Part shown: in pieces, positions 1,556 to 21,182 of the stretch
Numbering within the stretch: position 1 is the first letter of the stretch
Layout: each line of letters starts with the position of its first letter
Source of the DNA: an uncultured Planctomycetales bacterium
Lineage (GTDB): Bacteria; Omnitrophota; Gorgyraeia; Zapsychrales; Fredricksoniimonadaceae
Direction: 5' to 3'
NCBI GenBank assembly: GCA_964555945.1
Contig: CAZKUL010000001.1
Location: 1-57,459, forward strand
DNA length: 57,459 bases
The notes under the pieces: generated by a model
Databases searched by the model: none
Told to the model about the DNA's origin: nothing
What the model saw: the letters and a program-made list of their open reading frames with translations, nothing else
Translations under genes and position numbers: made by a program

Positions 1556-1575
1556 ATCTTATCCTTTCCAATTTT

Positions 1576-2334: not shown

Positions 2335-2346
2335 AAATACTCCGAC

Positions 2347-4283: not shown

Positions 4284-4312
4284 TTGTTTTCCTAATGGCT
4301 GATATAAAAGGT

Positions 4313-5671: not shown

Positions 5672-5692
5672 TCCATTGTCTCCCTTTGCAAC

Positions 5693-6256
5693 TCAACTAT
5701 TCATAAATCCAATGTTATACTGCACAGCAACTTCATCACTCACATGAATAAGCCCCAAAATACTAGGGGGCTTGAGTCCATAGTCTTTTAAATGAATAAG
5801 CATTTGCCCCTCACACATAAGGGTATCCCCCTCCATATGACCTTTTGATATCAGTGTTACAGGATGAGAAATGTTATGCATGGTCATAATGCCTGTGAAT
5901 TTAATCTCCCCGACTTGATTTTCAATAATTTTCGTAATATCCGTATCATTAAAAACGAAATGAATCTGTGGATATAGAGACGCATTAAACATCTGATACA
6001 TATTTTTATCACGCCCAGGTTCATCTGTTGTAAAACTAGCAACATCTACATCGACAAAACCTTTCGCTAAATTTAGTTTTTTCTCAAGAATTCCAGATAA
6101 TTTTCGTGCCGATCCATTAAAATCATGCAAGGTTGATTTACACATAAAACCGAGCCTACTTTTTTCTGACACAACATGCCATTGTCCAGATGCTTGAACA
6201 TATCCGCCACCAAACACAAATAATATAAATAAAAAAATCTTAAGAAATCTCGACAT
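5693..6256 (-). CDS. YceI-family periplasmic lipid/polyisoprenoid-binding protein
   Basis: 187 aa with a signal peptide and a YceI-like pattern (SRLGF..KSTLHDFNGS..., TDEPGRDKNM, HNISHPVTL). First gene after motif copy 1. Confidence 0.7.
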   Translation of the reverse strand: MSRFLKIFLFILFVFGGGYVQASGQWHVVSEKSRLGFMCKSTLHDFNGSARKLSGILEKKLNLAKGFVDVDVASFTTDEPGRDKNMYQMFNASLYPQIHFVFNDTDITKIIENQVGEIKFTGIMTMHNISHPVTLISKGHMEGDTLMCEGQMLIHLKDYGLKPPSILGLIHVSDEVAVQYNIGFMNS

Positions 6257-6349
6257 AAAAATTCTCCTTATAAGTTAACTTATTACAGCTTATCAATTGA
6301 TGGATATTTGATGTAGAGAAAAGCTATTGTGGAAGCACAAATGAAGGAA

Positions 6350-6393
6350 GAAAATTGCAGTTATGGACTTAAACCCTGCAAAATTTTTCAGGG
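6350..6393 (-). promoter_or_regulatory. triple-TGCA promoter/operator module, copy 1 (upstream of the YceI-ABC-OMP operon)
   Basis: Minus strand reads CCCTGAAAAATTTTGCAGGG-N13-CTGCAATTTTC. It shares core sequence and 10/21-bp spacing with copies at 14220, 17996 and 20412. Confidence 0.6.
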
Positions 6394-6412
6394 ATGGGGC
6401 TTGTTTAAAATT

Positions 6413-7153
6413 TTAAGGTTTTGATATATAAAAAGATGCTAGTATTCTTCTATAGAAAGGATTAACGACCTTGATATAAATATCCTTTCGTCGTCTTTCA
6501 GAGGGACGCTCAATACTCACATGTGTCAAAAAGTGTTTACTAAATCGCAAGTCAGGCATGTTTATTTTATTTTGTAAATCAATCCATTCTTGCGAAGACA
6601 AGGCAGCCAAAATTGATTTAAGATATTCTTCCTTCATCGTTCTATTGTAATTGATACCAAGGATATTTACACAAATGGCGTTCATGAATTTTGAATGTCT
6701 GACTAGATCCCTGATGATGATTGCCCCATCGATCTTCACAACGCGTTTTATTTCAGAAAGCATCTCTTCAGGCTGAGGCAAGTGATGGAGCATATTTTGA
6801 CAAAAAACAGCGTCAAACGTTCTATCATCAAAGGGCAGCCCTTTCGCATCTCCTTTAATAAAATTAATTTTGTTCGAAACCCCCTCCCTAGATGCATTGC
6901 GGGATGCAAATTTAAGCATCTCATCTGAAAGGTCAATAGCAGTAACCTGAACATTGGAGGTGTTCTTGGCGACCAATATAGCATCCCAACCCGTACCTGT
7001 ACCGATTTCAAGAAACTTCCCTTCAGAAGGACTAAGATTTATCACAGTTTCTGCAAAGCCTGCATGAACTATATTCAAATATCTACCTACAACCAGATCA
7101 TAGGCAACCACTTCTTCTGTAGAAGTCATGACTTCTTTTTTAAAAATTCTCAT
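6413..7153 (-). CDS. class I SAM-dependent methyltransferase
   Basis: 246 aa with SAM motif I LEIGTGTG and post-I acidic residue. Last gene of the T3PKS operon. Confidence 0.8.
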   Translation of the reverse strand: MRIFKKEVMTSTEEVVAYDLVVGRYLNIVHAGFAETVINLSPSEGKFLEIGTGTGWDAILVAKNTSNVQVTAIDLSDEMLKFASRNASREGVSNKINFIKGDAKGLPFDDRTFDAVFCQNMLHHLPQPEEMLSEIKRVVKIDGAIIIRDLVRHSKFMNAICVNILGINYNRTMKEEYLKSILAALSSQEWIDLQNKINMPDLRFSKHFLTHVSIERPSERRRKDIYIKVVNPFYRRILASFYISKP

Positions 7154-7179
7154 ATAGTTACATTTTTAATTTAAAATAA

Positions 7180-9636
7180 TCATGTTTTTTGAAAATTCAT
7201 CCGCGACTGCCATATAAAGCAAATTGTTAAATACAAAAAAGATGCAATTAACAACAAGGAAGAAAAACCAATAAACCTACTTAAAAAAATACTCATAGCG
7301 CTACCGACAATGGTCATATAGCCATTAAACCCCCAAGCCCAGGGGATTAAGTTTCTTTCGTAAACACCAAGACTTTTTAATCCTTCCGGAAAAAACATTC
7401 CTAGAAAGAATCCAATTGGTAAAATTAACACCAAGGATATCATCAATTTAAAAGGTAAATGCATCGACAAACAGTGCTGAATTAGCCAATGATTGAAGAA
7501 AAAATATAAATTTAAAATAGAAAATACAATTAAAGATACTCTCTTGATATTTAGATAACCTTGACTAAATAAATAATCTGAACACAAACTACCGATAGCA
7601 GTCGATATCAGCAAGCTCATTAAAACCACAGAAAAAGAATATATAGGATTACCCAATAAAAGTGTCAATGCTTGCATAATGGCTATTTCAGTAAATACAA
7701 AACCAAGACCAATAGTAGAAAAATAGACCAAGAACCGAGAAAGATTTTCTCCAGCAGAAGTTTTTATATTAAATATTAATGGATAAATAATAAGCACAAG
7801 ACCTATGACCAGCAACCCAATGGTAAAAAGCAGCACAGATAAATTAAACACAACCTGCCTAGTCGAATCATTCCAGTTTCCGAATATGACTTTCTTCCAT
7901 AGGTCTTTACTAAAGATACTCTGTATAAGAAATCCATTATCAATAAAGGGAGCATTATCCGTAGGTATCGATAAATCTTCATTGTATTGGTAGCTGGCAT
8001 CTTTAAGAAAATGATTCAGATTCTTGCTTTTTAATATATTCTCAAATAATTTGAAATCTTTATAGGTATAAAAAGGATTATAAATACTCATCCATCCCAT
8101 ACGAGATACATTTCTCTCAACTATAGAAACTTCATCTCTGGAAAAATCAGTATTTTTAATCAATAAGAATAAAGCATCTGTGCCGAAAAACATCTTCTTT
8201 TGAGTTATGCCATCTTTCACATCCTCCTGGGGGGCTATAACAATTACCTTATTAGCAACATGATCATATCCTAGCTCCTCCAAAGCCGCACGAGCCAGAG
8301 CTGTAATCTTTAGCTTTCTGCCGTAGGCAACACCTATTGTTCCACCTGGATTTAAATGCTTAAAATAGCTCTTGAAAGCCTCTTTTGTATATAGATATTG
8401 AGTTGTAGCACCGGAAACCCCTAGGTATTGGGAAGCTGAAGCCCCTCCGTATGAAAGAATGATGGAATCGAATTTTTTATCTATTGACTCAACATAACTA
8501 CGCCCTTCCTGCACAATCAAATGAACATTTTTCTTAGCAAAGAAATCAGTTAAATGATATCCTTCAACATCTTTTGCCATCTTGACTACAATTGGATTTA
8601 ACTCAACCCCCGTAATATCCGATATGCCTTTGGAATAACTATAGGCCTCTACCATATCCTTCCCTGCTCCAGCCATTAAAATTAGGATGTCCTGAGGATT
8701 TTTTAATAAAAAACCTAATGTTGTGGGCTGAAAATAACTAAACAATTTTAAATAAAAAGGATCTTCTTTCATAAATGGGTAAATATATCCTTCCCCATTG
8801 ATGATAGAAAACGCATAAATATTATGATTACTCTTTGTTGTGCTATCGACAAACAATGAAGCTCTTGAATATGCATTCCATTGATGCCATGATTCCTTAA
8901 AATCCATACCTTTTATTTTAGTGACATCAGCGATTTTCATTTTAACTTCAAGAAAATCTGTTTTAATATTAATGAGCAAAATAGTTACACAAGTTAACAA
9001 GAAAAATACAGCCGTTATTTTTCTCCATTTATCTTCATAAGTTGCCAATAATAAAATTATTAAAAAAGAAAAAATGGCCAATAAGATTAAAACCGAACTC
9101 AACTGAAAATAATTTAAACTAAAAGTACCAAAAATGCACCCGATTGAAGCCCCTAATAAATCAAAGAAATATATCCTGGAGGTATCTTTTGAATAAAATT
9201 TATAAATAAGAGAATAAAGTACACCAAGACAAAAAAAGATAATGGTAGAAATTAAACCAACCGTGAGTGAACTGCTCATTGTTTTTATTAAAAGTCGGTT
9301 CCAATAAACATCTCCCATTTTCAACGAATTTATGCCCCCAAATTCTAATCGCGCATTTACGCAATGAAAATTACTTATTGCCATGGTAAAAATAAGTAAT
9401 AAAACTCCTAAAAGGCAAAGATATTCAAAAGCCTTTGATTGAAGCCCTTCAACTGATTCTTTAAAATAAAATATGGACACAAATATCCCTGCTAAACTTA
9501 AACCCAAGAATGCGAAAGATATGGCAAAAAATGGAGAAAAGAAGAGTGCGGATAGCAAAACAGCTAATAACAATTCTAAAGATAAAAAAATAAAACTTAG
9601 AGAGAATGTCAGTAAATAAACTGAATTTGAACTCAT
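7180..9636 (-). CDS. polytopic membrane protein with embedded spermidine-synthase-like (SAM/dcSAM Rossmann) domain
   Basis: 818 aa. About 7 N-terminal and about 6 C-terminal TM helices flank a soluble domain with ILILMAGAGKDMVEA...GVELNPIVV, resembling fused MFS/spermidine-synthase architectures. Confidence 0.6.
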   Translation of the reverse strand: MSSNSVYLLTFSLSFIFLSLELLLAVLLSALFFSPFFAISFAFLGLSLAGIFVSIFYFKESVEGLQSKAFEYLCLLGVLLLIFTMAISNFHCVNARLEFGGINSLKMGDVYWNRLLIKTMSSSLTVGLISTIIFFCLGVLYSLIYKFYSKDTSRIYFFDLLGASIGCIFGTFSLNYFQLSSVLILLAIFSFLIILLLATYEDKWRKITAVFFLLTCVTILLINIKTDFLEVKMKIADVTKIKGMDFKESWHQWNAYSRASLFVDSTTKSNHNIYAFSIINGEGYIYPFMKEDPFYLKLFSYFQPTTLGFLLKNPQDILILMAGAGKDMVEAYSYSKGISDITGVELNPIVVKMAKDVEGYHLTDFFAKKNVHLIVQEGRSYVESIDKKFDSIILSYGGASASQYLGVSGATTQYLYTKEAFKSYFKHLNPGGTIGVAYGRKLKITALARAALEELGYDHVANKVIVIAPQEDVKDGITQKKMFFGTDALFLLIKNTDFSRDEVSIVERNVSRMGWMSIYNPFYTYKDFKLFENILKSKNLNHFLKDASYQYNEDLSIPTDNAPFIDNGFLIQSIFSKDLWKKVIFGNWNDSTRQVVFNLSVLLFTIGLLVIGLVLIIYPLIFNIKTSAGENLSRFLVYFSTIGLGFVFTEIAIMQALTLLLGNPIYSFSVVLMSLLISTAIGSLCSDYLFSQGYLNIKRVSLIVFSILNLYFFFNHWLIQHCLSMHLPFKLMISLVLILPIGFFLGMFFPEGLKSLGVYERNLIPWAWGFNGYMTIVGSAMSIFLSRFIGFSSLLLIASFLYLTICFIWQSRMNFQKT

Positions 9637-10289
9637 AAAGATGCCAACTTGTGAGTCCGTTCGTTTAAATACTCGTATACAGTTGCTAAATCAAATAACT
9701 CAATACAGGCAAGATTATGTTTCTTAAAATATTCTAAAAGGGTATCTTTAGCGAAAACAATATCCGCCTCCTTGGCAGCACAAATGTCCGATCTGCCATC
9801 ACCTATATAAACGATTGGGTTCTGCTTTGAATGGGTATCATCCATAAAATGCACTTTCTTACAATGTGCACAAAATGAACAATTAGGATTTTGATGAGGA
9901 AAAGATGGAAAAACTCTGTCCTTATAAAACTTTAAATGATTAGCATGAATTTTAAAATCTTTAATGCCATTATTCTCTAAAATTATATCAATGACGGGTC
10001 CAAAATTATCACTAACAATACAGGACTCTATTTCTCTGCTTCGCAAAAAACTAATTAACATTGAGAAATAAGGATCGATTTTAACCGTTTTTAAATATTT
10101 AATAAGCTCCTGTCTAGAAATTCTCACCCCCTTCATCTGTCCCCTCAGACACTCTTTGGTACTAATCTCACCTAATTGCCAGTCTTTTTCCAAAACCATC
10201 CAGTCATCACTAATTGAATAACGCTCAATCATTTCATTTAGAACATCACCCTTAGTCACAGTATTGTCAAAATCAATGAAAACACGCAT
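9633..10289 (-). CDS. HAD-IB family phosphatase (MtnX-like)
   Basis: DxDxT motif at the N-terminus (FIDFDNTVT), GDGRSD motif, Cys-rich insert CSFCAHCKK. ATGA overlap with the downstream gene. Confidence 0.7.
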   Translation of the reverse strand: MRVFIDFDNTVTKGDVLNEMIERYSISDDWMVLEKDWQLGEISTKECLRGQMKGVRISRQELIKYLKTVKIDPYFSMLISFLRSREIESCIVSDNFGPVIDIILENNGIKDFKIHANHLKFYKDRVFPSFPHQNPNCSFCAHCKKVHFMDDTHSKQNPIVYIGDGRSDICAAKEADIVFAKDTLLEYFKKHNLACIELFDLATVYEYLNERTHKLASL

Positions 10290-10299
10290 ATGATTTATC

Positions 10300-11079
10300 C
10301 TATCTAGCTTCTTGCATGAAATGCACTAAAGGCAAAATAATGCATTGTGGAAGAAAACGTACATTTATTGCCATTAACCTATTTAAAAAACCATGAACGG
10401 CAACAGTTTGTCCTTGTAACATCACCTTATACCCATAATGAGCAACCTCCTTAGGATCAGGAAGTGTTTGACCGTTTGTTAAACGAATTTCTTGGGGGAA
10501 GGTCGATATTTGAAAATTAGTTGCTGTTGGTCCGGGACATAAACATGTGACACTTACTCCAGTACCCTTTAATTCCTCAGAGATTGCTGATGAAAATGAC
10601 AGAATATATGCTTTTGTGGCATAATAAACAGACATTAAAGGACCAGGCTGAAAAGCCGCCGTTGAAGCCACATTCAATATTTTCCCTTTTCGGCGTTTGA
10701 CCATTCCAGGCAAAAAGAGTCGTGCTAAATTCGTCAAAGCAACAATATTTAGTTGTAACATTCGACCTTGCTTTTCCAAGTTTGAATCAACAAATTGCCC
10801 CCAGTCTCCTATTCCGGCATTATTTATGAGAACATCTACTTCTAAATTATTCCTTTTGATCTGTTCATAGACATACCCACAAGCCCCAGACTTCGATAAA
10901 TCACAAGCAATGACGTACACTTGGACTTTGTAAGTTAAGTATAAATAATCCCTAATTTCATCCAATTTAGATTTAGTGCGGGCTATAAGAATAAGATCGT
11001 ATTTATTCTCAGCTAATATTTTGGCGAATTCAAACCCTATACCATTGGAAGCCCCTGTGACAAGAGCTATTTTACTCAT
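10300..11079 (-). CDS. short-chain dehydrogenase/reductase (SDR)
   Basis: TGASNGIG cofactor motif, NNAG, catalytic YATKAY (YxxxK). Start moved to MSKIALVTGAS, which overlaps the stop of the upstream small ORF (ATGAGTAA). Confidence 0.85.
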   Translation of the reverse strand: MSKIALVTGASNGIGFEFAKILAENKYDLILIARTKSKLDEIRDYLYLTYKVQVYVIACDLSKSGACGYVYEQIKRNNLEVDVLINNAGIGDWGQFVDSNLEKQGRMLQLNIVALTNLARLFLPGMVKRRKGKILNVASTAAFQPGPLMSVYYATKAYILSFSSAISEELKGTGVSVTCLCPGPTATNFQISTFPQEIRLTNGQTLPDPKEVAHYGYKVMLQGQTVAVHGFLNRLMAINVRFLPQCIILPLVHFMQEAR

Positions 11080-11197
11080 TCGTATCGCCTGCATTGAGAG
11101 TTTCTTGACCATAAATACCCATCACAGACGCTAAAACAAGAACAAATATTGAAAATATAAAAATGATACCTGCTATAGATATGATTGCTAATTTCAT
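11072..11197 (-). CDS. 41-aa single-TM peptide (unannotated small ORF)
   Basis: AAAAGGAGACGAT-ATG Shine-Dalgarno. Product MKLAIISIAGIIFIFSIFVLVLASVMGIYGQETLNAGDTNE. Sits between two operon genes with its stop overlapping the SDR start. Confidence 0.45.
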   Translation of the reverse strand: MKLAIISIAGIIFIFSIFVLVLASVMGIYGQETLNAGDTNE

Positions 11198-11210
11198 ATC
11201 GTCTCCTTTT

Positions 11211-11963
11211 TTATTTCTTACCAATTTGTTGGGCAACCCCGCCTAACATATAATGCCTGTCATAAATATTTTTAAAACCTTCCCTAAACATCATTTGCAT
11301 AATTTCTTTGGAATCTGAGAAATATCTATTGGATATGCTTAAATAAGCAAAGGAATTATATTCATTACGATGAAAAAAAACCTTTCCCAGCCATGGCATT
11401 AATCTTTCATAATAAATTTGATAAAGAATTTTCTGCCATTTGCCTTCCGGCTTTCCTAAATCTAACGTGGTAAATATCCCGCCTGGTTTTAGTACCCGAT
11501 GCATTTCTTTAAGACCCAACGAAATATCCTTTAAATTACGAAGGCCAAAACACATCATAATGGCATCAAAGGTGTTGTCCTCAAATGGCAATTCCAAAGC
11601 GCTGGCCTCGTAAAAACTGATATTATTTAATTCCAGCTGATTGACCTTATTCTTGGCTAACGATAACATCTCTTCTGCAACATCTACCGCATCAATATGC
11701 AACCCCTTGCATCGCTGACTCATATAAATGGCCATATCCCCGCTTCCGGTACAGACATCCAACACCCTCATGCCCCGCTTTAAATTTAAACTACTAATAG
11801 AGGCATCTCTGTACTCTTGCTGCTGGCCTAAAGAAATAACATCATTAAGTTGATCGTATTTAGGAGCTAATTGATTAAAAAATAATTTGTTAGCTTCTTC
11901 CCAGGAATCTGTATGAAAATACTTATCAAAACCAACCTGTTTCATTATTTCCATATCTTTCAT
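11211..11963 (-). CDS. UbiE/MenG-type SAM-dependent methyltransferase
   Basis: LDVCTGSGD motif I and a UbiE-like N-terminus (FDKYFHT..). Start placed at MKDMEIMKQV after the AAAGGGA Shine-Dalgarno, 13 nt past the PKS stop. Confidence 0.75.
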   Translation of the reverse strand: MKDMEIMKQVGFDKYFHTDSWEEANKLFFNQLAPKYDQLNDVISLGQQQEYRDASISSLNLKRGMRVLDVCTGSGDMAIYMSQRCKGLHIDAVDVAEEMLSLAKNKVNQLELNNISFYEASALELPFEDNTFDAIMMCFGLRNLKDISLGLKEMHRVLKPGGIFTTLDLGKPEGKWQKILYQIYYERLMPWLGKVFFHRNEYNSFAYLSISNRYFSDSKEIMQMMFREGFKNIYDRHYMLGGVAQQIGKK

Positions 11964-11976
11964 AGCAATCCCTTTC

Positions 11977-13011
11977 CTATTCTGACCAGCGTAAACAGGC
12001 CGCATTTACACTAACCCCTGCCCCATAACTAACCATTAACGCAGGTGTTCCATCTATAAATTTTGTCGTATCCATCCATCGTTTTAGGATAAATAAAACA
12101 CAGGGGGACGACATGTTTCCATATTCAGAAAGAACATAACGGCTTGCCATTAGAGATGTAGAGTTTATATTTAATTCCTGTTGTAAGGTATCTAAAATCA
12201 ACCGCCCACCAGGATGAAAAACTAAAATATCAGGCAATTGAGTTATTTGCATCCGTGCCAAAAGTTCTTTAACACCTTGGGCTACAATTTGAGGGACATC
12301 CTTTCCTAAAACATTGTTCAATCTGGAATTGACAGTCTTGAATCTCAATTGTTCTCTGTGTTCTGGCACCAGCAAACATCCATGCCGTTCTAATTGCCAA
12401 CCTGGTTTTTTACAATTAGTAACTATGCAAGCGGCTGCCCCATCCCCAAAAATGGAATTTGATAGTATTAAATCAATAGCTTCCCCATGAACAAAAGTTG
12501 CAGACGACACTTCAACCGCAATAAATAAAACATTTGCATTTTTCTTCGTTAATAAAAATTGATCGGCAATACGTAATCCTGGCACCGCTGCACCACATCC
12601 GTGACCAACAACATCCAGTATGAATATGTCTGGACTGATGCCCAATACTTCCCCTACATGCGATGTTAATCCAGGGCACAAATAGCCGGTGCACGTTGTA
12701 ATAATTAGTCCATCAATTTGCCCAATCCCAAGGCCTACGGCTTTAAGGCATTTTTGAGCAGCTTGGACAGCCAACTCAGTTGCCATTTTTTCAAATCGAA
12801 AGACAGATTCATCGCAATTCTCAGTGGCTAACACCTCCATACTATCTAAAGCAAATGTCCGGGAACGAACTCCATCGTCAGAAAGGAAGCGATTATAGAA
12901 TTTCTTACTTCGCTCAGAGTAGTTTTGGAACCTCATTAATTCGATTAACTCTTTTTGATCCTTGCGTAATGAAGGATTTGCCGTTTCTACACAGGTAATT
13001 CTAGACTTCAC
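11977..13011 (-). CDS. type III polyketide synthase (chalcone-synthase superfamily)
   Basis: 344 aa with Cys-His-Asn triad contexts VGHGCGAAVPG, VFHPGGRLILD and YGNMSSPCVLFIL. Confidence 0.9.
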   Translation of the reverse strand: MKSRITCVETANPSLRKDQKELIELMRFQNYSERSKKFYNRFLSDDGVRSRTFALDSMEVLATENCDESVFRFEKMATELAVQAAQKCLKAVGLGIGQIDGLIITTCTGYLCPGLTSHVGEVLGISPDIFILDVVGHGCGAAVPGLRIADQFLLTKKNANVLFIAVEVSSATFVHGEAIDLILSNSIFGDGAAACIVTNCKKPGWQLERHGCLLVPEHREQLRFKTVNSRLNNVLGKDVPQIVAQGVKELLARMQITQLPDILVFHPGGRLILDTLQQELNINSTSLMASRYVLSEYGNMSSPCVLFILKRWMDTTKFIDGTPALMVSYGAGVSVNAACLRWSE

Positions 13012-14149
13012 TTAATACCCCCTTCGCATATACAATCTTGTTTTTTGTAACCCTTGGGCGAGAATAGCTCATCGCTGTTCGCCTAAACATCTTATTGATA
13101 TCTAAAAAACGAATTATCGCATCTGCAACCCAAGGAAAATGTGCAACACGACCAAATAAATCAGCCAGACGTCGTTGTTCCCCGAAATGCTTCTGATATT
13201 CATCAGTGTATGCCTTAAGCCTTTCGGCGTCATGGTTATATGTCGTTATTGACTGAGCTAATAATTGACCGCTTTGTAAAGCCACACTGATTCCGACACC
13301 CATCACGGTATCAATAAACGCAGACGAATTACCGACACGCCATATACCATTTTCATAATGAACAATTGAATGTCGTACCTGAATTTGAATAGCCTTCCAA
13401 GGAGATACCCTTGTGGCCCCAATCATTACATTCTGCAAATGTGAGCTCTCCTTGATCCAACCCATCAGCACCTTTTCAGGATCTTGCCCTTTAGCTTTAA
13501 AATATTTAGAGTCTACTACATAACAGACATTGACTTGGTTCTTTTCAAATGGATTGATACCAACATGCCCGCCCTCACAGCAATGAAGCATCACCCGTTT
13601 AAATGATTGAGGAATCCCCTGATAGATGGCGCAAATACCAAATTGAATTTTTGTTAATTTTACCGATGGAGAATGCTGGCCACTAGCATCAATAAGATGG
13701 CGAGTTCGCAAATTAAATTCTTTATTATTTCCATAATGGTCAACCGTTACTTCAAATCCGTTGCCATTGTTGTATATATTCCGAGCCTGAGCCCCCTCAT
13801 ACACCTCAATGCCCATTGCCTTAACACGATCTAACAATAGCGAATCAAATACCTTTCTACTTACCCCTAATGCTTCACCTTCTATCGGTATGACTGTACT
13901 TGCCCCCTTAGAGGATGTAAGTAACGACTCCTCAATAACGCGAGCCCCTTCTTCCAAAAGTTTTGACCAAATCCCTAAATCAAATAACATTGCTTTATTT
14001 TCAGGACCAATAAAACCACCGCATGTCTTGTGCCGAGGGAATGCCGATTTATCAATAATAACAACCTTCCATCCACGCTTCGCTAAACCTAAAGCACAGG
14101 ATGTCCCAGCTGGTCCTGCGCCAATAATTAATGCTTCAACTGTTGTCAT
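13001..14149 (-). CDS. FAD-dependent oxidoreductase/hydroxylase (geranylgeranyl-reductase-like fold)
   Basis: N-terminal dinucleotide fold IIGAGPAGTSCA...VVIIDK. 382 aa. First gene after motif copy 2. Confidence 0.8.
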   Translation of the reverse strand: MTTVEALIIGAGPAGTSCALGLAKRGWKVVIIDKSAFPRHKTCGGFIGPENKAMLFDLGIWSKLLEEGARVIEESLLTSSKGASTVIPIEGEALGVSRKVFDSLLLDRVKAMGIEVYEGAQARNIYNNGNGFEVTVDHYGNNKEFNLRTRHLIDASGQHSPSVKLTKIQFGICAIYQGIPQSFKRVMLHCCEGGHVGINPFEKNQVNVCYVVDSKYFKAKGQDPEKVLMGWIKESSHLQNVMIGATRVSPWKAIQIQVRHSIVHYENGIWRVGNSSAFIDTVMGVGISVALQSGQLLAQSITTYNHDAERLKAYTDEYQKHFGEQRRLADLFGRVAHFPWVADAIIRFLDINKMFRRTAMSYSRPRVTKNKIVYAKGVLSEV

Positions 14150-14219
14150 GAAAACAGTTTATCAAGAGGCCAAGCACTTCAGATAGATGAAAATCATGAT
14201 AAAGACAAAAATTAGGGAA

Positions 14220-14263
14220 GAAAATTGCAGATTCAAACAAAAACTATGCAAAATCTTGCAGGG
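14220..14263 (-). promoter_or_regulatory. triple-TGCA promoter/operator module, copy 2 (upstream of the T3PKS operon)
   Basis: Minus strand reads CCCTGCAAGATTTTGCATAG-N13-CTGCAATTTTC, with TGCA cores starting 10 and 21 bp apart. Lies 70 nt upstream of ATG 14149. Confidence 0.6.
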
Positions 14264-14303
14264 TGTAATTAAACCATATTTTTTCAGCTTATACGAAAGA
14301 AAA

Positions 14304-16244
14304 TTAAAAGCCAAACATATGATCTAGACTGAAAGATTTATCACCTTTGATTAGTCCATGATAGCCGAACAATCGGCAAGTTGTGTCACGTATAATAATA
14401 TACGAGTCTCGACCGGCACGGATGCGCTCTTCTTGGGAAAACATTTCGTTGTAACGCCAAAGCAAGGAACCGCTGCAGGCAATATTCACCGTCTTTTTAA
14501 TAATTTCATTTCCCTTTGCATCTGACAAGATCAAATCAGTTTCAGACTGGGTATGCCATGTGGTTGAGGCTGGATAAATCAAATGACATAACGTGTCTAT
14601 GCCTTCATCACGGCCCAGACGCAAGAAAAGACGCGTACTTAAACCTGGCGGACGACCCGCATAAGACTGTGGTTCATTTTTGTAGACCAATACTGTATTA
14701 AAAATATGCGAGCCGAAGCTGGTTTCGGAATTATGCCCGCTTTTAGTATCTTCGTAACGCATCAAAGCATGCAACCAACCATCGCCCTCACCACCTTGAG
14801 AAAAATCATAAACCAACTCCAAATGACCAAAACCTCCGGGGAATTCTTTTTCAGAACGCTTTCCCAATAAGTTATTGATATTAAAATCTTTGATATTACT
14901 GCGGTTTAATATGCCAAGAGAGTATTTCCCTGCTTGCTGTCCTTTACTGTTATAAACGATTAGAGTCAACGGAAAATTCTCCTGGCAGGTTGACATTGGT
15001 GTGGGCAGCATGATGTTTTTAAATCGGCCAATGGGTAGGATGGGAGCCGGTAATATATAACCCTTACCCATTACTTTAACTAAGTCGGGAATGCCAGGAT
15101 CAGACTTCAAATCAGTACGTTCGACATTGGTGTGCGCAATCAGGCGTTTGCCTTTAGCATCGATAACTTCATAACGTGGCCGCACAAAATGCCGCCCAGC
15201 ATGGACTTCAAACTGCTGCGGCCACCTGGCCTTTGGAAATAAAATAGCCACATCTATCGCACAAGTCGCAAAAGCAGCAATTGGTTTATCGAAAGCAACA
15301 ACATCGTCAGAACCTATTAAGTTCAAACCAATACCAGATGCAGGGATCAGACAGGGATGGCTATTTTGGACCCAAAGTAAAACCTGCTCCCCCTCACGAG
15401 GAGCAGGAAGGCCTGCGTAAAGATCAGCGGGCCAGGAATTGGCATCATGAGTGCAGGAAAGGACAGAGTCATCGTTGCCATAGGTATCTAACGCATATTT
15501 GACGATATCATGACCGGCGATTCCCGTAAAATGTACAAATAAATTTCCAGTAAAACTTTTCAATTTAAAGCGTTGGCTTATCTCAATACTATCCAGGATG
15601 ATAGTATGAACGCATTTTTCAAGCTTTTCATTCCATTGTGCCAATACGCGGCCATCTTTGTCAAACAAACTGCACCATAGCCCAACATTTTTAGGACTGT
15701 ATCCTGCCCAATAATTGGCAGTGACTAAGCGTGTATGATGCCCCAATTCTTCCCGAAAAAAAACAAAATTGGTAGCGAAATTCAAACTGTCAAGATAGTT
15801 TCGGGAATTTGTAAGAAATTCATCCGGCAAACGCGCATCGTCAAAAGAAAAAACCTTTATCCCTTTTGGCAATAGATGCTGAATTTGAGCAATCAAACGC
15901 GTGGAATCAAAAGCTGTAATAAAAATAACATCCGCATCCATATTTTTAAAATCAGTAATAGGCTCTGTATTTCGACCTAGGAGCTGTTTGCCGATATCAG
16001 TGACGTTCTGGACAAAAACACTCATAATTTTTAACTGTGAAATATCATAAAGAGCTTCAAATTCCGCAGCCTGCCCCATCGGGTCATAGACAGCAACTCT
16101 GCCAAAAGACGACAAGAAATTGATCAGATTGAGCATTTTGAAGGAAGTTAAAGGATGTCCCAGCGCCTTAAAAAGGACTGAACCTCCTGCGGCATTGCTG
16201 AATGTTTTGACCTTAAGAAGTTTTTCTTGAGATAATGTCTGCAT
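14304..16244 (-). CDS. conserved-looking 647-aa soluble protein of unknown function
   Basis: Long uninterrupted ORF. True start is taken as MQTLSQEKLL (ATG 16244, AAGG 8 nt upstream, 7 nt after the ELM1-frame stop). The first 41 codons in the ORF track overlap the ELM1 reading frame. Confidence 0.7.
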   Translation of the reverse strand: MQTLSQEKLLKVKTFSNAAGGSVLFKALGHPLTSFKMLNLINFLSSFGRVAVYDPMGQAAEFEALYDISQLKIMSVFVQNVTDIGKQLLGRNTEPITDFKNMDADVIFITAFDSTRLIAQIQHLLPKGIKVFSFDDARLPDEFLTNSRNYLDSLNFATNFVFFREELGHHTRLVTANYWAGYSPKNVGLWCSLFDKDGRVLAQWNEKLEKCVHTIILDSIEISQRFKLKSFTGNLFVHFTGIAGHDIVKYALDTYGNDDSVLSCTHDANSWPADLYAGLPAPREGEQVLLWVQNSHPCLIPASGIGLNLIGSDDVVAFDKPIAAFATCAIDVAILFPKARWPQQFEVHAGRHFVRPRYEVIDAKGKRLIAHTNVERTDLKSDPGIPDLVKVMGKGYILPAPILPIGRFKNIMLPTPMSTCQENFPLTLIVYNSKGQQAGKYSLGILNRSNIKDFNINNLLGKRSEKEFPGGFGHLELVYDFSQGGEGDGWLHALMRYEDTKSGHNSETSFGSHIFNTVLVYKNEPQSYAGRPPGLSTRLFLRLGRDEGIDTLCHLIYPASTTWHTQSETDLILSDAKGNEIIKKTVNIACSGSLLWRYNEMFSQEERIRAGRDSYIIIRDTTCRLFGYHGLIKGDKSFSLDHMFGF

Positions 16245-16251
16245 ATTGATT

Positions 16252-17199
16252 TTACCTTTCTTTCTCTTGAAAGCATTCATAAACAAAATTTGCCGCCTTG
16301 CTTGTCTCATCCAGCGGAATGTTCTTCCAGATTTCAATTTCACCTGAAAAAAAACGCGCTTTACCATTTTGTATTAAACCTTTACAAAATTGTTTATCAC
16401 GATTTCCGCCATTAGGCAGTTCATATATATAAACCGGCTTACCAGTCGATCAAGCTTCCGAAATCATGGAGATGGAATCACTTGTAACAACAATAACATC
16501 CGCAAGGGCCAACAAACCAAAATATGGATTTTCTCCTTTGCCATCCCAAATGTAAGAAGCAATCCCAGCGAGGTCTGGTCTCAATATGGCCTCATTTTCC
16601 TTCCCTGTCCGTCACGAAAATGAAATGGCAAGTCCGCCTCCTGTAATTGCTACTGAAGCCAGAAGTTTTTTTGCAAAATCATGGGCTAATACATCAGAAA
16701 AACCCTGATGCTTGTTTTTACCTCCGACCAACACACAAATCAAAGGACGCGGTAATGACGACAGCAAAGGACGGAAATGCATGGAAGCGCCGTTGAGCCT
16801 TTCAGTGCTGACATGATGAATAGCTCCTTGGGTAACAAAGACATTTTTCCCGCGCATTTTGTCGTGCGTAGGAACAATCACAACGTCAAACTGTTTGGGA
16901 TCTATAAAAAGGTCTTGAATATGGACAGTGAAGGTTTTATTTTTACTTGCACGACGAATAGCCACTGAAACAGGACCGCTTTGACGTCCGCAAGAAATTA
17001 GCATATCCGGCCATGGAGCAATAAGGCCACGCTCAACTGGTGAAAATAAATGCAGGAGACCCTTAGGTCTTTTAATCTCCTTTAAAATATATGGAAGTCT
17101 TAATGCTTGAGCCAGACCAATGGCCTGGTTCTGAAGGCCGACTAAGTCTTCAGTCACGATCCAACATGATGATACCTGCAAATCAGATTTAATGACCAT
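16252..17199 (-). pseudogene. ELM1/GtrOC1-family putative glycosyltransferase interrupted by two in-frame TGA codons
   Basis: A single 315-codon frame runs from 17199 to the TAA at 16252-16254. TGA at 16612-16614 falls at the first R of the family motif SRRT (..AISFS*RTGKE..). TGA at 16450-16452 falls at the conserved C of SEACxTGKPV (..MISEA*STGKPVYIY..). There are no frameshifts. Confidence 0.7.
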
Positions 17200-17211
17200 T
17201 TTTACCGCTTT

Positions 17212-17874
17212 TTAATAGGATGAAAACATTTTGAAAATGGCGGACCATCGGTGCCGATTTTGCTCATGATCGACGAATTTCTGATGAGTCACCCAGTTCA
17301 TCTGAATGACCTTACGTGTGCCTTCAAAAGGCAGATGGCCATGATAAGAATGATCGCTTCGCCTGAAAATAAGCAGGGTACCCACATTAGGAGATAACTC
17401 GGTTTTGATATCCTCAATATTATTACTGTTAAGTAGACGAAGACGGCCTGCGGCCTGATTTTCCCAGGAAGGGTTCATGTAGAGAAGCACAGTAATAATC
17501 TTGCTTTCCGAATCTGTATGTACTTGACCGTCCTTGAGCCTGCATTTGCCGCGGACCGTGAACATTGTCGGTTTACCCTCAAGATCCAGCAAAAATTTTT
17601 TTTCTATGGCGTGCCGGAAAGCATCCGAGTTTAATTCATTAATCAATTGCATAAATTCGCTGCTGCAAGACACAGAGGATAAAGGAAAACTTCCGGCAGC
17701 CTTGACTTTCGGATAAGCGTCTATCAACTTTTCTTTCCAATCCTGTAGGATAAAATCCAAAACGACCACATATTCATAGGGTGATGTTTCCAATTTCGAG
17801 TTATAAATCTTATTAACGTCAATGATAGACAAGTTCGACTTGCTTTCTACTTGTGTTTTGATTGGCTGGTTCAT
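17212..17874 (-). CDS. 2OG-Fe(II) oxygenase superfamily protein
   Basis: HxD...H iron triad context (QVHTDSE ... SYHGH) and RxS-like 2OG site. Start set at MNQPIK after the GAGGAA Shine-Dalgarno; the ORF track start 17922 is also possible. Confidence 0.6.
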   Translation of the reverse strand: MNQPIKTQVESKSNLSIIDVNKIYNSKLETSPYEYVVVLDFILQDWKEKLIDAYPKVKAAGSFPLSSVSCSSEFMQLINELNSDAFRHAIEKKFLLDLEGKPTMFTVRGKCRLKDGQVHTDSESKIITVLLYMNPSWENQAAGRLRLLNSNNIEDIKTELSPNVGTLLIFRRSDHSYHGHLPFEGTRKVIQMNWVTHQKFVDHEQNRHRWSAIFKMFSSY

Positions 17875-17995
17875 ATGTCCATTCCTCATAAAGGTATAGT
17901 CTCGGCTTTTAAAAAATGCCATTAAACTATTTTTTTAATATAACTAATTTTTTTAGATCAATTAATACTAAATTCTAGTTAGAGAGAAAATTAAT

Positions 17996-18041
17996 GAAAA
18001 AAATTGCAGATGTGGTCAAAAAGAGTGCAAATTCTTGCAGG
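17996..18041 (-). promoter_or_regulatory. triple-TGCA promoter/operator module, copy 3 (upstream of the oxygenase/ELM1/647-aa operon)
   Basis: Minus strand reads CCTGCAAGAATTTGCAC-N16-CTGCAATTTTTTTC with 10/21-bp core spacing. Starts 6 nt after the regulator gene stop. Confidence 0.6.
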
Positions 18042-18046
18042 AACAA

Positions 18047-18586
18047 TTAAATGCCATATTTCTTAAGCTTATACCAGAGATTACGTTCGGAAATTCCTAA
18101 TAAACGTGCAGCTTCTGCTTTCACACCATGAGCGGCATTGAGGGCTTTTTGGATAGCTTCTTTTTCTTTTAAACCTACTTGAGATTGTAGATCAAAATCA
18201 TTCGCTGAAGACTCCTTTTTGTTCGACACTTTCTCCATTGCTTTTTTGACAGATTGAACAAGCTCATCGACGCTAAAAGGTTTTCGTATATAATCACAAG
18301 CGCCATGTTTTAAAGTTTTAACAGCGGTATCAACATCCGCATGAGCAGTAGTCACAACAATAGGTAATTTGATTCCCAAACGTTCCATTTCATAAATAAG
18401 CTCTACCCCATCCATGACAGGCATCCGTATATCGGTCACAACAACATCAATCTTTTTATCAAATAAAAATTTCAATGCTTCCTGCCCATTGGATGCCGTC
18501 AAAACATTAAAACCATGCTCAGGCAATCCTAACCTCAAGACGCGCAGCAGGCGAGGTTCATCATCAACTATTAACATTTCAAACAT
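18047..18586 (-). CDS. response regulator, REC + Fis-type HTH (NtrC-like but lacking the AAA+ sigma54-activation domain)
   Basis: REC domain (LIVDDEP..., VVTDIRMP, KPF) joined directly to a C-terminal HTH_8-like segment (EKEAIQKALNAAHGVKAEAARLLGISERNLWYKLKKYGI). Start at MFEMLIVDD, 1 nt after the kinase stop. Confidence 0.85.
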   Translation of the reverse strand: MFEMLIVDDEPRLLRVLRLGLPEHGFNVLTASNGQEALKFLFDKKIDVVVTDIRMPVMDGVELIYEMERLGIKLPIVVTTAHADVDTAVKTLKHGACDYIRKPFSVDELVQSVKKAMEKVSNKKESSANDFDLQSQVGLKEKEAIQKALNAAHGVKAEAARLLGISERNLWYKLKKYGI

Positions 18587-18587
18587 A

Positions 18588-19901
18588 TTATTTTCCCATA
18601 GGTAGATGTATTGTAAAAGCTGTTCCATGAGGAGGAGGATTGCTAACCTCAATTCTTCCTCCGTGATCCTCAATAATGCGTTTGACCACAGTTAATCCTA
18701 TCCCGAAACCATACGGTTTAGTCGTGTACATCAAATCAAAAATCTTTTGCTTTTCTTTGGGATCTAATCCGCTTCCATAATCCCGTACCTGCAACATAAA
18801 CTCTTGTCCTACGACCATCATAGCGATTTCAATGGTATTATTTTTACTAGAGGCTTCAATAGCGTTAAGCAATAAATTCATTAATACCTGTTTGATTGCT
18901 TCAGGATGACAAGGCAAAAGTACTCCAGTCGCTTTATTATAAACGTCTAGCCTTAAATCTGCCGCACGTATTTTTGAAGCAAACAATTCAGTTACCCTTA
19001 AAACCAATGCTGATACATCTGTTGAAACCTTGGGTTTATTATCCCCACGGCGTAGATGCAATAAATCAGTCAGTAATCCATCAACCCGTTCGACTTCTGA
19101 AGATATATCTTCAGCTAAAGTAAGAACCTCTCCTGTCGAGCGTTTGGCAATCACACTGGCAGCACTTTTAACTATCCCCAAAGGATTACGGATTTCATGG
19201 GCAAGCTGCTGAACCAAGGTCACGGAAGCTATTTGTCGTTCTTGCTCCATTAACTGCTTTGTTTGTCTTTGCAATACCTTAATACTATAGGTACTTATTC
19301 CAAGTAAAAGTAAAGTAACTATTGCAATAAAATATACCCCTCCACTCTCCACTTTATATCGAGCTTTTTTAGCTTTGCCTAAAGAAACCTTAATACTATC
19401 AAAATAAAATTGACGTAATGGTTGGCTTGCTTCCTGTAATTGATCTAATGAATAAATTAATGAGGAAGTCGTTTTAGGTGTGGGCTTGGGGTGTAGAGTA
19501 GCAATCGTTTTAGTCAAATCAAGAAAAGCCTGACGTGCGGGGACAAGCAAATGTGCTTCTTGTTGCTCATGGCTGAGTAAATCTACTATTTTCTCTTCTT
19601 CTTGCTCATTTCGGGACCACGATGATAATATGTGGATTAACTCATTAGATTTTAATTTTAATTGGGTGACAGGTAGCATCCCTGCCTGCCAAGCACTGAT
19701 ATCCGTTGATATTTCTTTAAGGACATCCTCGGCAATAACCATGCGTTGGTATTCTTCCCATTCGTCCTCAAATTGAAGTTGATAAAGACGAATTCCATCA
19801 AGATAATGCAGTCCGATTCCGCCTGCAATGGCAATAGCAAGTCCAAGTATCACAAAAGCTGATGTTATTTTATTGGTTAATTTTAGGTAATATGATTTCA
19901 A
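18588..19901 (-). CDS. sensor histidine kinase
   Basis: Two TM segments flank a periplasmic/coiled region. H-box LAHEIRNPL and HATPase N/G boxes (LLLNAIEAS, DYGSGL, GFGIGL). Confidence 0.85.
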   Translation of the reverse strand: MKSYYLKLTNKITSAFVILGLAIAIAGGIGLHYLDGIRLYQLQFEDEWEEYQRMVIAEDVLKEISTDISAWQAGMLPVTQLKLKSNELIHILSSWSRNEQEEEKIVDLLSHEQQEAHLLVPARQAFLDLTKTIATLHPKPTPKTTSSLIYSLDQLQEASQPLRQFYFDSIKVSLGKAKKARYKVESGGVYFIAIVTLLLLGISTYSIKVLQRQTKQLMEQERQIASVTLVQQLAHEIRNPLGIVKSAASVIAKRSTGEVLTLAEDISSEVERVDGLLTDLLHLRRGDNKPKVSTDVSALVLRVTELFASKIRAADLRLDVYNKATGVLLPCHPEAIKQVLMNLLLNAIEASSKNNTIEIAMMVVGQEFMLQVRDYGSGLDPKEKQKIFDLMYTTKPYGFGIGLTVVKRIIEDHGGRIEVSNPPPHGTAFTIHLPMGK

Positions 19902-20266
19902 AATTTATTCACCTGTCTTCTAATAAAAACTACCATAAACAATGACTCTGCAATCATTGCCGCAACGCCAAGTGGTTCGAACCAAGCATCAGGCTCAGCT
20001 GGAATAAAAGGTAATCCTACGGTTCTACTGGCTATATAGCCACCCAATGAACCTACTGCAATCATAAGCCCAAGATTCCATCCCCAAACCTTCTTTTGAT
20101 AAATACCATACGCCGCAATTACAGCGGAAACTCCATTAGCGTAAAAAAGCCAACCTTTATAAACTGCATCACTAAAGCTATCCTTTGCATCAATTACGTG
20201 AATAAGGCCGATAATCAAAATCAATACAATCCCAGACCATAAAAGAAATTTTGATAGTTTAGTCAT
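19898..20266 (-). CDS. small 4-TM membrane protein, unknown function
   Basis: 122 aa with four hydrophobic helices. ATGA overlap with the kinase gene. First gene after motif copy 4. Confidence 0.6.
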   Translation of the reverse strand: MTKLSKFLLWSGIVLILIIGLIHVIDAKDSFSDAVYKGWLFYANGVSAVIAAYGIYQKKVWGWNLGLMIAVGSLGGYIASRTVGLPFIPAEPDAWFEPLGVAAMIAESLFMVVFIRRQVNKF

Positions 20267-20411
20267 GAAACACGCTTTCTTATGAATAAAATACTTTGGT
20301 TTATACCCTAACTAAAGAGATTAAAACACTTCATAGATTGAATAATGTACTATTATTTTACCATAAATAAAAAAGACTACGATAAAACCAATATATCTGA
20401 TAACAAACAAA

Positions 20412-20459
20412 GAAAAAAATTGCAGAAATTAATGATACACCATGCAATTTTATGCAGGG
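20412..20459 (-). promoter_or_regulatory. triple-TGCA promoter/operator module, copy 4 (upstream of the membrane protein-HK-RR operon)
   Basis: Minus strand reads CCCTGCATAAAATTGCATGG-N14-CTGCAATTTTTTTC with core spacing 10/22 bp. Confidence 0.55.
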
Positions 20460-20504
20460 TAAGGAATTAGTGGACACAGAAAATAATATTAATCAAAAGA
20501 TTAA

Positions 20505-20663
20505 TTAAATTTCAATCAAGTTGATTACAGGTATTTCAATCATGAACACTAACCATGAATGGCATACCAAACCAGATAAAACCGAAAATAGTGCTATTTC
20601 GGACCAAAGCAACGAACGATTTTCTTCGCTTAACTTTGCACCTTTTTTAATGAGTTGAATCAT
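20505..20663 (-). CDS. 52-aa small ORF with strong Shine-Dalgarno (hypothetical membrane peptide)
   Basis: AAATGGAGGTGAGGT-ATG. Product MIQLIKKGAKLSEENRSLLWSEIALFSVLSGLVCHSWLVFMIEIPVINLIEI. Below the ORF-track size cutoff. Confidence 0.4.
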   Translation of the reverse strand: MIQLIKKGAKLSEENRSLLWSEIALFSVLSGLVCHSWLVFMIEIPVINLIEI

Positions 20664-20780
20664 ACCTCACCTCCATTTATGTATGCCCTCTTTCGGAATA
20701 ATGACGCGGTCTTAAAATTTTTGGTGTCCAAATTCGATCTACATTAGGTTACTGGTAGTTAAAAAATCTTAAAAGATGTT

Positions 20781-20813
20781 AAAACAAAAAAGCTCCGTTT
20801 ATCGACGGAGTTT
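20781..20813 (-). terminator. intrinsic terminator following tRNA-like half A
   Basis: Minus strand reads CTCCGT-CGATAA-ACGGAG followed by CTTTTTTGTTTT. Confidence 0.7.
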
Positions 20814-20858
20814 CTTGATTTCTTTAAAAATAAAGGAAATAGGAAATTGGCCGGATTG

Positions 20859-20899
20859 CATTGCGAACGACGCGCTCTCCCAAACCAAGCTACCGACCC
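20859..20899 (-). repeat. tRNA-like 5' half, copy A (acceptor 5' strand, D arm, anticodon stem-loop only)
   Basis: Minus strand reads GGGTCGGTAGCTTGGTTTGGGAGAGCGCGTCGTTCGCAATG, identical at 38 of 41 positions to 34263..34223. There is no T arm or 3' acceptor strand downstream. Confidence 0.7.
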
Positions 20900-21018
20900 T
20901 TTATAACTCTTTTATTATTAATTACTTGCGACAATAAAAATTTTTTCTATTTTCTAATTTAGAGTTGGTGTCCAAATTGTGTCCGTTACGCCCTACAAAA
21001 TTAAAAGGTTCTTTAAAA

Positions 21019-21056
21019 CGTTATTAACGATGCGCTCTCCACTAAGTTAAACACAC
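21019..21056 (-). repeat. degenerate third tRNA-like 5' half
   Basis: Minus strand reads GTGTGTTTAACTTAGTGGAGAGCGCATCGTTAATAACG and aligns with the D-arm/anticodon-arm part of copies A and B. It is followed by an AATTTGGACACCAA box at 20965-20978. Confidence 0.45.
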
Positions 21057-21182
21057 TATAAATCGATTTATTGATTAGAAATTATACAACAAATCACCCT
21101 ATTGTGTATTAATTTCTCATTCGCTATTAACTAGCAAGGGATAGAACGAGTAATCATTATCTACCTATCTCATTCTTGGAAT

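Follow-up and report, generated by a model that had tools for sequence, protein, structure and literature searches.

Regulators of the RegA/PrrA/ActR type combine a receiver domain (REC) and a Fis-type helix-turn-helix (HTH) within about 180 amino acids (aa) and, having no AAA+ domain, act at sigma-70 promoters. The RegB-type kinase has six transmembrane (TM) segments and senses redox state, and RegA sites are GC-rich. Fis itself, a nucleoid protein without receiver domain and with degenerate sites, binds near -71 and -102 to activate rrnB P1. For AtoC of E. coli, the regulator of the AtoS/AtoC pair, the experimentally verified sites are GCTATGCAGAAATTTGCACA and GCTATGCAGAAAATTGCGCA (PMC3118216). 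In K-12 DNA, these boxes stand head to head between the atoC stop codon, which they directly follow, and the sigma-54 promoter of atoD. Here, we compare with these systems a module of roughly 47 bp that occurs four times in contig CAZKUL010000001.1 of an uncultivated Omnitrophota bacterium (57,459 nt, called the window in the following), close to the genes of a histidine kinase and a response regulator. We consider it likely that the module combines two operator boxes of AtoC type, which would serve as upstream activator site of this local response regulator (18047..18586).

All four copies are found on the minus strand, each in a gap that precedes a gene run, and follow the pattern yCCTGCA-N6-TGCAkrG-N13/14-CTGCAATTTTYTTC; no other such site exists in the 57 kb. 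We refer to the full dyad yCCTGCA-N6-TGCAkrG as box 1 and to the following TGCA-N6-TTCC, which retains the upstream half alone, as box 2. The individual boxes are as follows (bits refer to the position matrices introduced below).

6374..6393, minus strand: site 1 box 1, CCCTGAAAAATTTTGCAGGG, with TGAA as first core; precedes the YceI/aminotransferase/ABC/LolA-like/cytochrome/outer-membrane protein (OMP) operon; 26.6 bits.
6346..6360, minus strand: site 1 box 2, CTGCAATTTTCTTCC; 27.4 bits.
14244..14263, minus strand: site 2 box 1, CCCTGCAAGATTTTGCATAG; precedes the flavin adenine dinucleotide (FAD)-oxidoreductase/type III polyketide synthase (PKS) operon; 30.4 bits.
14216..14230, minus strand: site 2 box 2, CTGCAATTTTCTTCC; 27.5 bits.
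18023..18042, minus strand: site 3 box 1, TCCTGCAAGAATTTGCACTC; begins 4 nt past the regulator stop codon.
17995..18009, minus strand: site 3 box 2, CTGCAATTTTTTTCA; 23.7 bits.
20440..20459, minus strand: site 4 box 1, CCCTGCATAAAATTGCATGG, a TGCA-N6-TGCA dyad and candidate autoregulation site upstream of the p122-kinase-regulator operon; 28.5 bits.
20411..20425, minus strand: site 4 box 2, CTGCAATTTTTTTCT, a half-decayed second box; 26.4 bits.

Box 1 is followed by CTGCAATTTTYTTC after 13 nt in sites 1-3 and after 14 nt in site 4. Successive TGCA cores begin at intervals of 10 and 21 bp (the latter being 22 bp in site 4), i.e., 31/32 bp from first to third, and the box centres are 31-32 bp apart, which amounts to three helical turns and places both boxes on one DNA face. 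A 17-nt gap separates the boxes of site 4, as in most of its orthologues ahead of the kinase-regulator operon. Thus, the geometry claimed by the original prediction (four consecutive intergenic copies on the minus strand, this core spacing, and a position about 70-150 nt before the first start codon) is what we measure, with 91, 68, 74, and 146 nt between module end and start codon for the four sites. Its three TGCA cores per copy are present in general, the first core of site 1 (TGAA) being the exception. The third TGCA, described as a half-site, is indeed a strong half but better seen as part of a second AtoC-type box; box 2 is a full dyad (CTGCCAGAAATTGCG) in the related loci L003 and L005. 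On the other hand, the module does not occupy the only sizeable gaps: further gaps of 86, 98, and 244 nt occur inside the gene runs, the longest (16368..16611) belonging to a broken ELM1-like gene. Including a downstream extended -10 element (see below), the conserved unit spans about 125 bp and is therefore longer than first described.

The four-copy module is real and non-random. In the window, TTGCA-N16-CTGCAATTTT has three matches where 0.02 are expected, and CTGCAATTTTYTTC has exactly four perfect ones. For scoring, we built position matrices from orthologous sites of other contigs only. The four window sites reach 15.7-30.4 bits for box 1 and 23.7-27.5 bits for box 2, while the next-best window positions score 5.7 and 15.6, respectively, once reverse-strand readings of the same palindromes are set aside.

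The module boxes and the E. coli AtoC boxes are of the same type, i.e., TGCA-N6-TGC(A/G). At 14 of 16 positions, the core of window site 3 (CTGCAAGAATTTGCAC) agrees with the AtoC box ATGCAGAAATTTGCAC, and GCAATTTTCT within box 2 of site 2 is identical to the second AtoC box. As a cross-check, a 16-nt matrix made from Omnitrophota sites only was run on the 6.3-kb rcsC-atoS-atoC-atoD region; the AtoC boxes rank 1st, 3rd, and 4th among 12,544 positions, and the two best matches of the box-2 matrix also fall inside them. Both systems furthermore share their gene order (kinase, regulator, boxes right past the regulator stop codon, target operon) and the placement of two boxes on one DNA face. They differ in box spacing, since the centres are 21 bp apart in E. 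coli ato versus 31-32 bp in the window, in the half-decayed state of the window's box 2, and in their targets, which are genes of short-chain fatty acid catabolism in E. coli and would be polyketide lipid genes in the window.

The likeness extends to the proteins, which are encoded as follows (domains by Pfam).

18047..20266, minus strand: two-component operon of p122, histidine kinase, and response regulator.
19898..20266, minus strand: p122, a 122-aa membrane protein and first gene of the operon.
18588..19901, minus strand: histidine kinase with two TM segments and a periplasmic domain.
18047..18586, minus strand: response regulator of 179 aa with REC and Fis-type HTH, without AAA+ domain.

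Within the regulator, Pfam detects only REC (PF00072) and HTH_8 (PF02954), joined by a linker of about 20 aa. Its best NCBIfam model is AtoC, matched over the REC and HTH stretches with 133 bits versus a cut-off of 714, and the kinase matches AtoS best and also ZraS, again far below the equivalog cut-off. BLASTP against E. coli AtoC yields 44% identity for REC and 32% for the last 76 residues (the HTH region), where both proteins show the helix pattern IS-R-L-YKL--YG. When the C-terminal DNA-binding tail of 59 aa is compared with NCBIfam, PrdR scores 40 bits, AtoC is second at 30, and NtrC, ZraR, and Fis reach 14-19; matches are confined to tails of sigma-54 enhancer-binding proteins (EBPs) plus PpsR and Fis. 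The recognition helix ISERNLWYKLKKYG is invariant in orthologues with at least 78% identity and nearly so at 57-59%; its AtoC counterpart is ISRRALMYKLQEYG. This tail similarity is to be read as homology only. The regulator appears to resemble AtoC at the DNA-recognition step.

Beyond that step, the two diverge. AtoC comprises 461 aa with a sigma-54 AAA+ domain, while the 179-aa window regulator lacks the sigma-54-interaction AAA+ domain (Pfam) that members of the AtoC/NtrC family need. Likewise, GG-N10-GC is clearly visible in the E. coli atoD promoter, but inspection by eye finds none between module and start codons for the window sites, L001, L004, and L006. A sigma-70-type extended -10 is seen downstream of the module instead. 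Because domain and sigma-54 promoter were both tested and are both absent, we take the regulator to be an AtoC-like variant and not a member of the sigma-54 EBPs or of AtoC proper, as judged from its sequence. The kinase shows two hydrophobic segments (residues 8-35 and 184-211) around a hydrophilic domain of about 150 aa and, unlike AtoS, no PAS domain detectable by Pfam. No conserved DNA-binding protein other than the regulator is encoded in the cluster.

In its two-domain build of about 180 aa without AAA+ domain, the window regulator equals RegA/PrrA/ActR. The kinase, however, departs from the six-TM RegB form (two TM segments, one periplasmic domain), the boxes are AT-rich TGCA dyads and not GC-rich, and the DNA-binding tail resembles those of sigma-54 EBPs (and PpsR) in NCBIfam. 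That is, by kinase type and site type the system does not fit RegA/PrrA/ActR. No RegA/ActR-type model is among the 21 NCBIfam matches to the tail, a library not confirmed to hold one. With Fis at rrnB P1, the system would share, by analogy, a Fis-type HTH dimer bound upstream of a sigma-70 promoter on one DNA face at positions similar to the predicted -74/-105; the latter rest on a predicted transcription start, and Fis has no receiver domain. Our literature search on Omnitrophota promoters and on NtrC-family regulators without AAA+ domain found nothing directly relevant.

To follow the module through relatives, we fetched the loci around eight regulator orthologues (L001-L006, L161, L162) with identities from 91% down to 57%. 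A TGCA-N6-TGC(A/G) dyad about 5-45 nt past the regulator stop codon is present in all eight, the module being retained even at 57-59% regulator identity, and the closer orthologue loci show a second copy upstream of the kinase-regulator operon. Almost all regulator homologues belong to metagenome-assembled genomes (MAGs) of Candidatus Omnitrophota; an exact look-up of the window protein found no identical record.

We also scanned larger collections. In the GTDB species genomes, CTGCA-N5-TTGCR-N16/17-CTGCAATWT matches 106 stretches, about 100 of which, in unrelated taxa, are lone chance matches or belong to a single conserved coding sequence. Module-like matches occur only in genomes with two of them, both on the contig of the regulator orthologue (CAZASA010000027, JAJXTI010000042). 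A stricter pattern yielded 46 stretches in metagenomes, among them about 20 true modules (one contig, L115 or Ga0265338_10079866, is 100% identical to the window). According to tblastn with the window proteins, every one of these 20 or so is placed upstream of p122-kinase-regulator or directly past the regulator gene, ahead of (YceI-)FAD-type III PKS-UbiE-SDR-HAD. Most matches of both scans were thus discarded after inspection as chance matches or conserved coding sequence, e.g., CTGCATCAGCTTGCGGGTGACGTTGTCGAT... Within 272 kb of Omnitrophota loci, strong box-1 matrix scores are essentially confined to the regulator-locus positions, and no convincing module site is found elsewhere in this DNA. 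The module is therefore exclusive to the kinase-regulator/PKS locus in every collection searched. A general promoter type is ruled out by these strict scans together with the 272-kb matrix scans, i.e., within the strict patterns and the DNA at hand the motif does not precede a large share of unrelated genes, the outcome that would have spoken against the original prediction.

Sites upstream of the kinase-regulator operon are found in L001, L004, L114, L116, L119, L125, L139, L146, L148, and L153, and an orthologue of site 2 directly past the regulator gene in L001, L004, L113, L119, L135, L146, and L148. What follows the module varies: it is an NmrA-like/344-aa/methyltransferase operon (type-B) in L002, L003, L005, and L006, a secretin-like gene in L021, and a YceI-led PKS operon in L106, L133, L161, and L162, where the module stands directly ahead of YceI (in degenerate form in L161 and L162). 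Since the YceI export genes of L001 follow the PKS operon without a module in between, window site 1 is a lineage-specific placement of a unit of module, promoter, and YceI that is also seen in L106.

Some of these loci deserve mention in their own right. On MAG contig JAJXTI010000042 (L021 5395-7138, L106 105-1363), the module past the regulator heads a 533-aa secretin-like gene; the gene of a 387-aa multi-TM protein is located further downstream, and then a second module heads YceI-FAD-type III PKS. In the most distant lineage (L161 4470-4505), the kinase-regulator operon has no box and hence no autoregulatory site, while a degenerate module is kept past the regulator gene. L002, whose box 2 is likewise a full second dyad, carries a further box about 96 bp downstream (10665). 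Contig CAZASA010000027.1 (L004/L039/L078) is recorded as 'uncultured Planctomycetales bacterium', a label that may be wrong because its regulator and cluster group with proteins of Omnitrophota MAGs. Finally, unrelated matches in L018 and L109 (Cloacimonadota), L030 and L052 (Chlamydiae/Parachlamydiales), and L101 share the repeats GACTTTTCTGCAAT...TTGCA...TTGACTTTTCTGCAATATT, which may represent another TGCA-type operator/promoter family in other phyla.

Downstream of the module, a second element is conserved. Of the 25 non-redundant sites, 20 have TGnTAnnnT at an offset of +62 to +66 (counted from where box 2 begins), compared to a background of about 0.1% per position and less than 1% expected over +62..66; since the 25 sites share descent, these statistics overstate their independence. 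The sequence between box 2 and this extended -10 has diverged among the sites. The element takes the forms TGATAAACT, TGATAAGCT, TGCTAAACT, TGGTAAAAT, and TGATATACT, and the window shows the following instances.

20355..20363, minus strand: predicted extended -10 of the p122-kinase-regulator operon, TGGTAAAAT, 62 bp from the box 2 start.
17937..17942, minus strand: candidate -10 of the 2-oxoglutarate (2OG)-oxygenase/ELM1-like/687-aa operon, TATATT without TG, 67 bp from the box 2 start, where the other sites have their -10 as well; the weakest of the four.
14156..14164, minus strand: predicted extended -10 of the FAD/type III PKS operon, TGATAAACT.
6287..6295, minus strand: predicted extended -10 of the YceI operon, TGATAAGCT, 65 bp from the box 2 start and followed by a 5' untranslated region with AAGGAG.

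Orthologues of site 4 keep TGGTAAAAT or TGATAAAAT at +62/63, and TGATAAGCT also precedes YceI in L106. Because the element is retained in L113 and L135 although the start codon is further off, we regard it as a promoter element and not as a translation signal. In L161, the kinase is preceded by a canonical TTGCGT-N17-TGTATAAT promoter, which indicates that the phylum uses sigma-70-type extended -10 promoters. No -35 is recognisable upstream of the extended -10, which fits an activator-dependent promoter. Transcription is predicted to start about 77-81 bp past the box 2 start, such that the box centres would be near -74 and -105. In the window, this would put the starts near 14149 (the A of the FAD ATG) and at about 6280, 17930, and 20348. 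Given the TGnTAnnnT conserved 62-66 bp downstream of box 2, the module seems to precede the core promoter and to be an upstream activator site. A generic promoter scan of 5500..21500 was uninformative (50 sites versus 53.8 in shuffled sequence).

The arrangement is most compact at the FAD gene, whose ATG (14149) follows the hexamer after 6 nt. In the window, L001, L004, L119, and L146, this ATG comes 6-7 nt past a TGnTAAACT/TATACT extended -10 without Shine-Dalgarno sequence, while neighbouring genes have AAGGAG-type sites. This suggests that the FAD mRNA is leaderless.

Put together, the observations are consistent with the following mechanism. The kinase, with its periplasmic domain of about 150 aa between two TM segments, would phosphorylate the regulator, possibly assisted by the co-transcribed 122-aa membrane protein. 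Regulator dimers would occupy box 1 and, cooperatively, box 2, and from about -105 and -74 would activate a sigma-70-type promoter with extended -10 and no recognisable -35. One module copy would drive the kinase-regulator operon itself, i.e., positive autoregulation, and the other three the alkylresorcinol/hierridin-type phenolic-lipid PKS operon, the YceI/ABC/LolA-like/OMP export operon, and an accessory operon. The regulator may have originated from an AtoC-type sigma-54 EBP that lost its AAA+ domain and kept its DNA specificity. The original prediction had seen a promoter/operator module of the local REC/Fis-HTH regulator that heads a four-operon regulon with autoregulation. Comparison argues for its operator part (locus exclusivity, persistence down to 57-59% identity, the AtoC box sequence, and AtoC/AtoS homology), while the promoter part is not supported.

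Several points weigh against this interpretation. Support for regulator binding and for activation is comparative throughout, and only the analogy with Fis makes it plausible that a regulator without AAA+ domain could activate from -105/-74. The -10 statistics suffer from shared descent as noted, and the -10 of site 3 has no TG extension. Many sites downstream of the regulator gene show a weaker TAATTT hexamer just past box 2; if this were a -10 overlapping the box, the regulator would be a repressor. In three relatives, box 1 also forms a strong terminator-like hairpin with a T-run. Finally, the strict two-box patterns let diverged or single-box sites elsewhere in genomes escape, and the scanned material consists of the 57-kb window, the 272 kb of related loci, GTDB species genomes, and metagenomes, with no complete genome of this organism.

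Three alternatives were considered. The module could itself hold the core promoter, i.e., TTGCA as -35 with TGCAAT/CAATTT or TAATTT as -10, read by sigma-70 or an alternative sigma factor; in that case, the regulator would work as a repressor or class II factor, or the module would be a pure sigma promoter. The TTGCAN-N16/17-TGCAAT geometry is promoter-like, TAnnnT is found at +14..19 past box 2 in roughly 15 of 25 sites, and module and conserved downstream block always occur together. As a sigma-70 promoter, however, the hexamers are poor: TGCAAT is missing the A at -11, which is essential, CAATTT would need a spacer of 18-19 nt, and TAATTT has no conserved -35 ahead of it. Unlike a -35 element, box 1 has dyad symmetry, no sigma factor gene is linked, and the motif is not a general promoter type. 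The much better conserved TGnTAnnnT 62-66 bp downstream stands in several loci 6-7 nt before an ATG without Shine-Dalgarno sequence, which is sensible only if transcription starts there. A sigma-54 reading fails within the dyad, where the cores are 10 and not 11 bp apart and GG is missing, as well as downstream of the module, where GG-N10-GC is absent, the regulator also having no AAA+ domain. We thus consider a core promoter within the module unlikely, and the alternative sigma factor with -35 (TTGCA) and -10 (CAATTT), which the original prediction had offered as its second option, is not borne out. It is improbable, too, that the boxes are bound by another transcription factor and that the two-component genes are linked to them by shared cluster membership only. 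The TGCA-N6-TGCA box type is short, TGCA-type repeats also occur in unrelated phyla (L018, L030, L052, L109), and binding by the regulator is deduced by comparison. Yet the site right past the regulator stop codon is present in all eight loci, regardless of which operon comes next (type-B NmrA-like, secretin, YceI-led), the box type is identical to that of AtoC, the closest characterised homologue of the regulator, the autoregulatory position is typical of two-component systems, and the cluster offers no other conserved DNA-binding protein.

We give very little credence to the dyad acting in RNA, as a hairpin or intrinsic terminator at the end of the preceding operon, with only the rest of the module regulatory. 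Three of the four window copies are located 4-40 nt past a stop codon with TTT after the dyad, and in L002 (10569-10590), L003 (10561-10585), and L005 (10565-10590) box 1 forms a perfect, GC-rich hairpin with TTTTTT behind it (-12 to -17 kcal/mol, z -3.4 to -4.6), such that it may double there as terminator of the kinase-regulator operon. The window hairpins, in contrast, reach only -3.6 to -8.8 kcal/mol, three of four being no better than shuffles. Among 26 distinct dyads, the TGCA cores are invariant while the outer arm positions are complementary in 58-65% of sites, i.e., unpaired in 35-42%, without compensatory changes; the dyad is conserved as sequence and not as hairpin. Site 4 and the upstream site of L004 are placed well downstream of genuine separate terminators (20810..20793 in the window), and the phasing of the dyad with box 2 is fixed. 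An intrinsic terminator was therefore rejected for the window on account of weak hairpins and lacking compensatory changes, the respective features being found in L002, L003, and L005 only. The operator pair of the local response regulator thus remains our preferred reading.

The genes of 372..20266 are all encoded on the minus strand. Besides the two-component operon, they form three candidate target operons (identities by Pfam and NCBIfam).

14304..17922, minus strand: operon after site 3; 2OG-Fe oxygenase, broken ELM1-like gene, 687-aa protein.
6413..14149, minus strand: operon after site 2; FAD oxidoreductase, type III PKS, UbiE-type methyltransferase, SDR, HAD, 818-aa membrane protein, second methyltransferase.
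372..6256, minus strand: operon after site 1; YceI, class III aminotransferase, ABC ATPase, FtsX/MacB permease, LolA-like protein, CxxCH protein, MetA-type OMP.

The ELM1-like gene (PF06258; 16254..17199, minus strand) is one 315-codon frame that is broken by two in-frame TGA (16614..16612 and 16452..16450), which explains the 244-nt gap. Since TGA is an ordinary stop codon in 12 of 47 window genes, it looks like a pseudogene or like nonsense mutations rather than recoding. The true start of the 687-aa open reading frame is probably Met42 (at about 16244). Inside the export operon, a 105-aa protein (1238..1555, minus strand) has a CxxCH motif (CINCH) behind a signal-like N-terminus and is a candidate small c-type cytochrome.

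The operon after site 2 contains the trio of methyltransferase, FAD oxidoreductase, and type III PKS of the hid/alkylresorcinol clusters, a type known from Planctomycetota and cyanobacteria (PMC10896814), which would make a phenolic lipid of this kind its product. As a further likeness, the 'S. ferox' cluster also holds a gene for a lipid/isoprenoid-binding protein (PMC10896814). The window cluster differs from hidABC and the planctomycetal alkylresorcinol clusters in gene order and by extra SDR, HAD, aminotransferase, and ABC/LolA-like export genes. A further difference is the dedicated two-component system conserved beside the Omnitrophota clusters: the words 'regulator' and 'two-component' are absent from the main text of PMC10896814, and no regulator is reported there.

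A wider reading, which we put forward tentatively and hold to be rather doubtful as a whole, is that a protein of AtoC lineage lost its sigma-54 ATPase, kept its operator specificity, and was rewired as class-I-like activator of extended -10 promoters without -35, some of them leaderless. The unit of about 125 bp would then be a portable cassette, whose duplication or relocation brought different envelope-related operons (phenolic-lipid PKS, YceI/ABC/LolA-like export, secretin-like, and 2OG-oxygenase) under one regulon in different Omnitrophota lineages. This would not open a new class of mechanism but provide an evolutionary case in which a sigma-54 EBP loses its motor domain, keeps its DNA specificity, and switches to sigma-70-type promoters.

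To our knowledge, there are no genetics for Omnitrophota. For this uncultivated phylum, the analysis supplies a defined operator sequence and a candidate for its regulator, along with predictions of where transcription starts and of one leaderless gene. It would also give a first regulatory handle on PKS clusters of the alkylresorcinol/hierridin type, which are widespread in PVC (Planctomycetota-Verrucomicrobiota-Chlamydiota) bacteria and cyanobacteria. If the wider reading is true, the module and its two-component system would constitute a sensor-controlled programme by which members of an uncultivated phylum remodel the phenolic lipids of their outer membrane.

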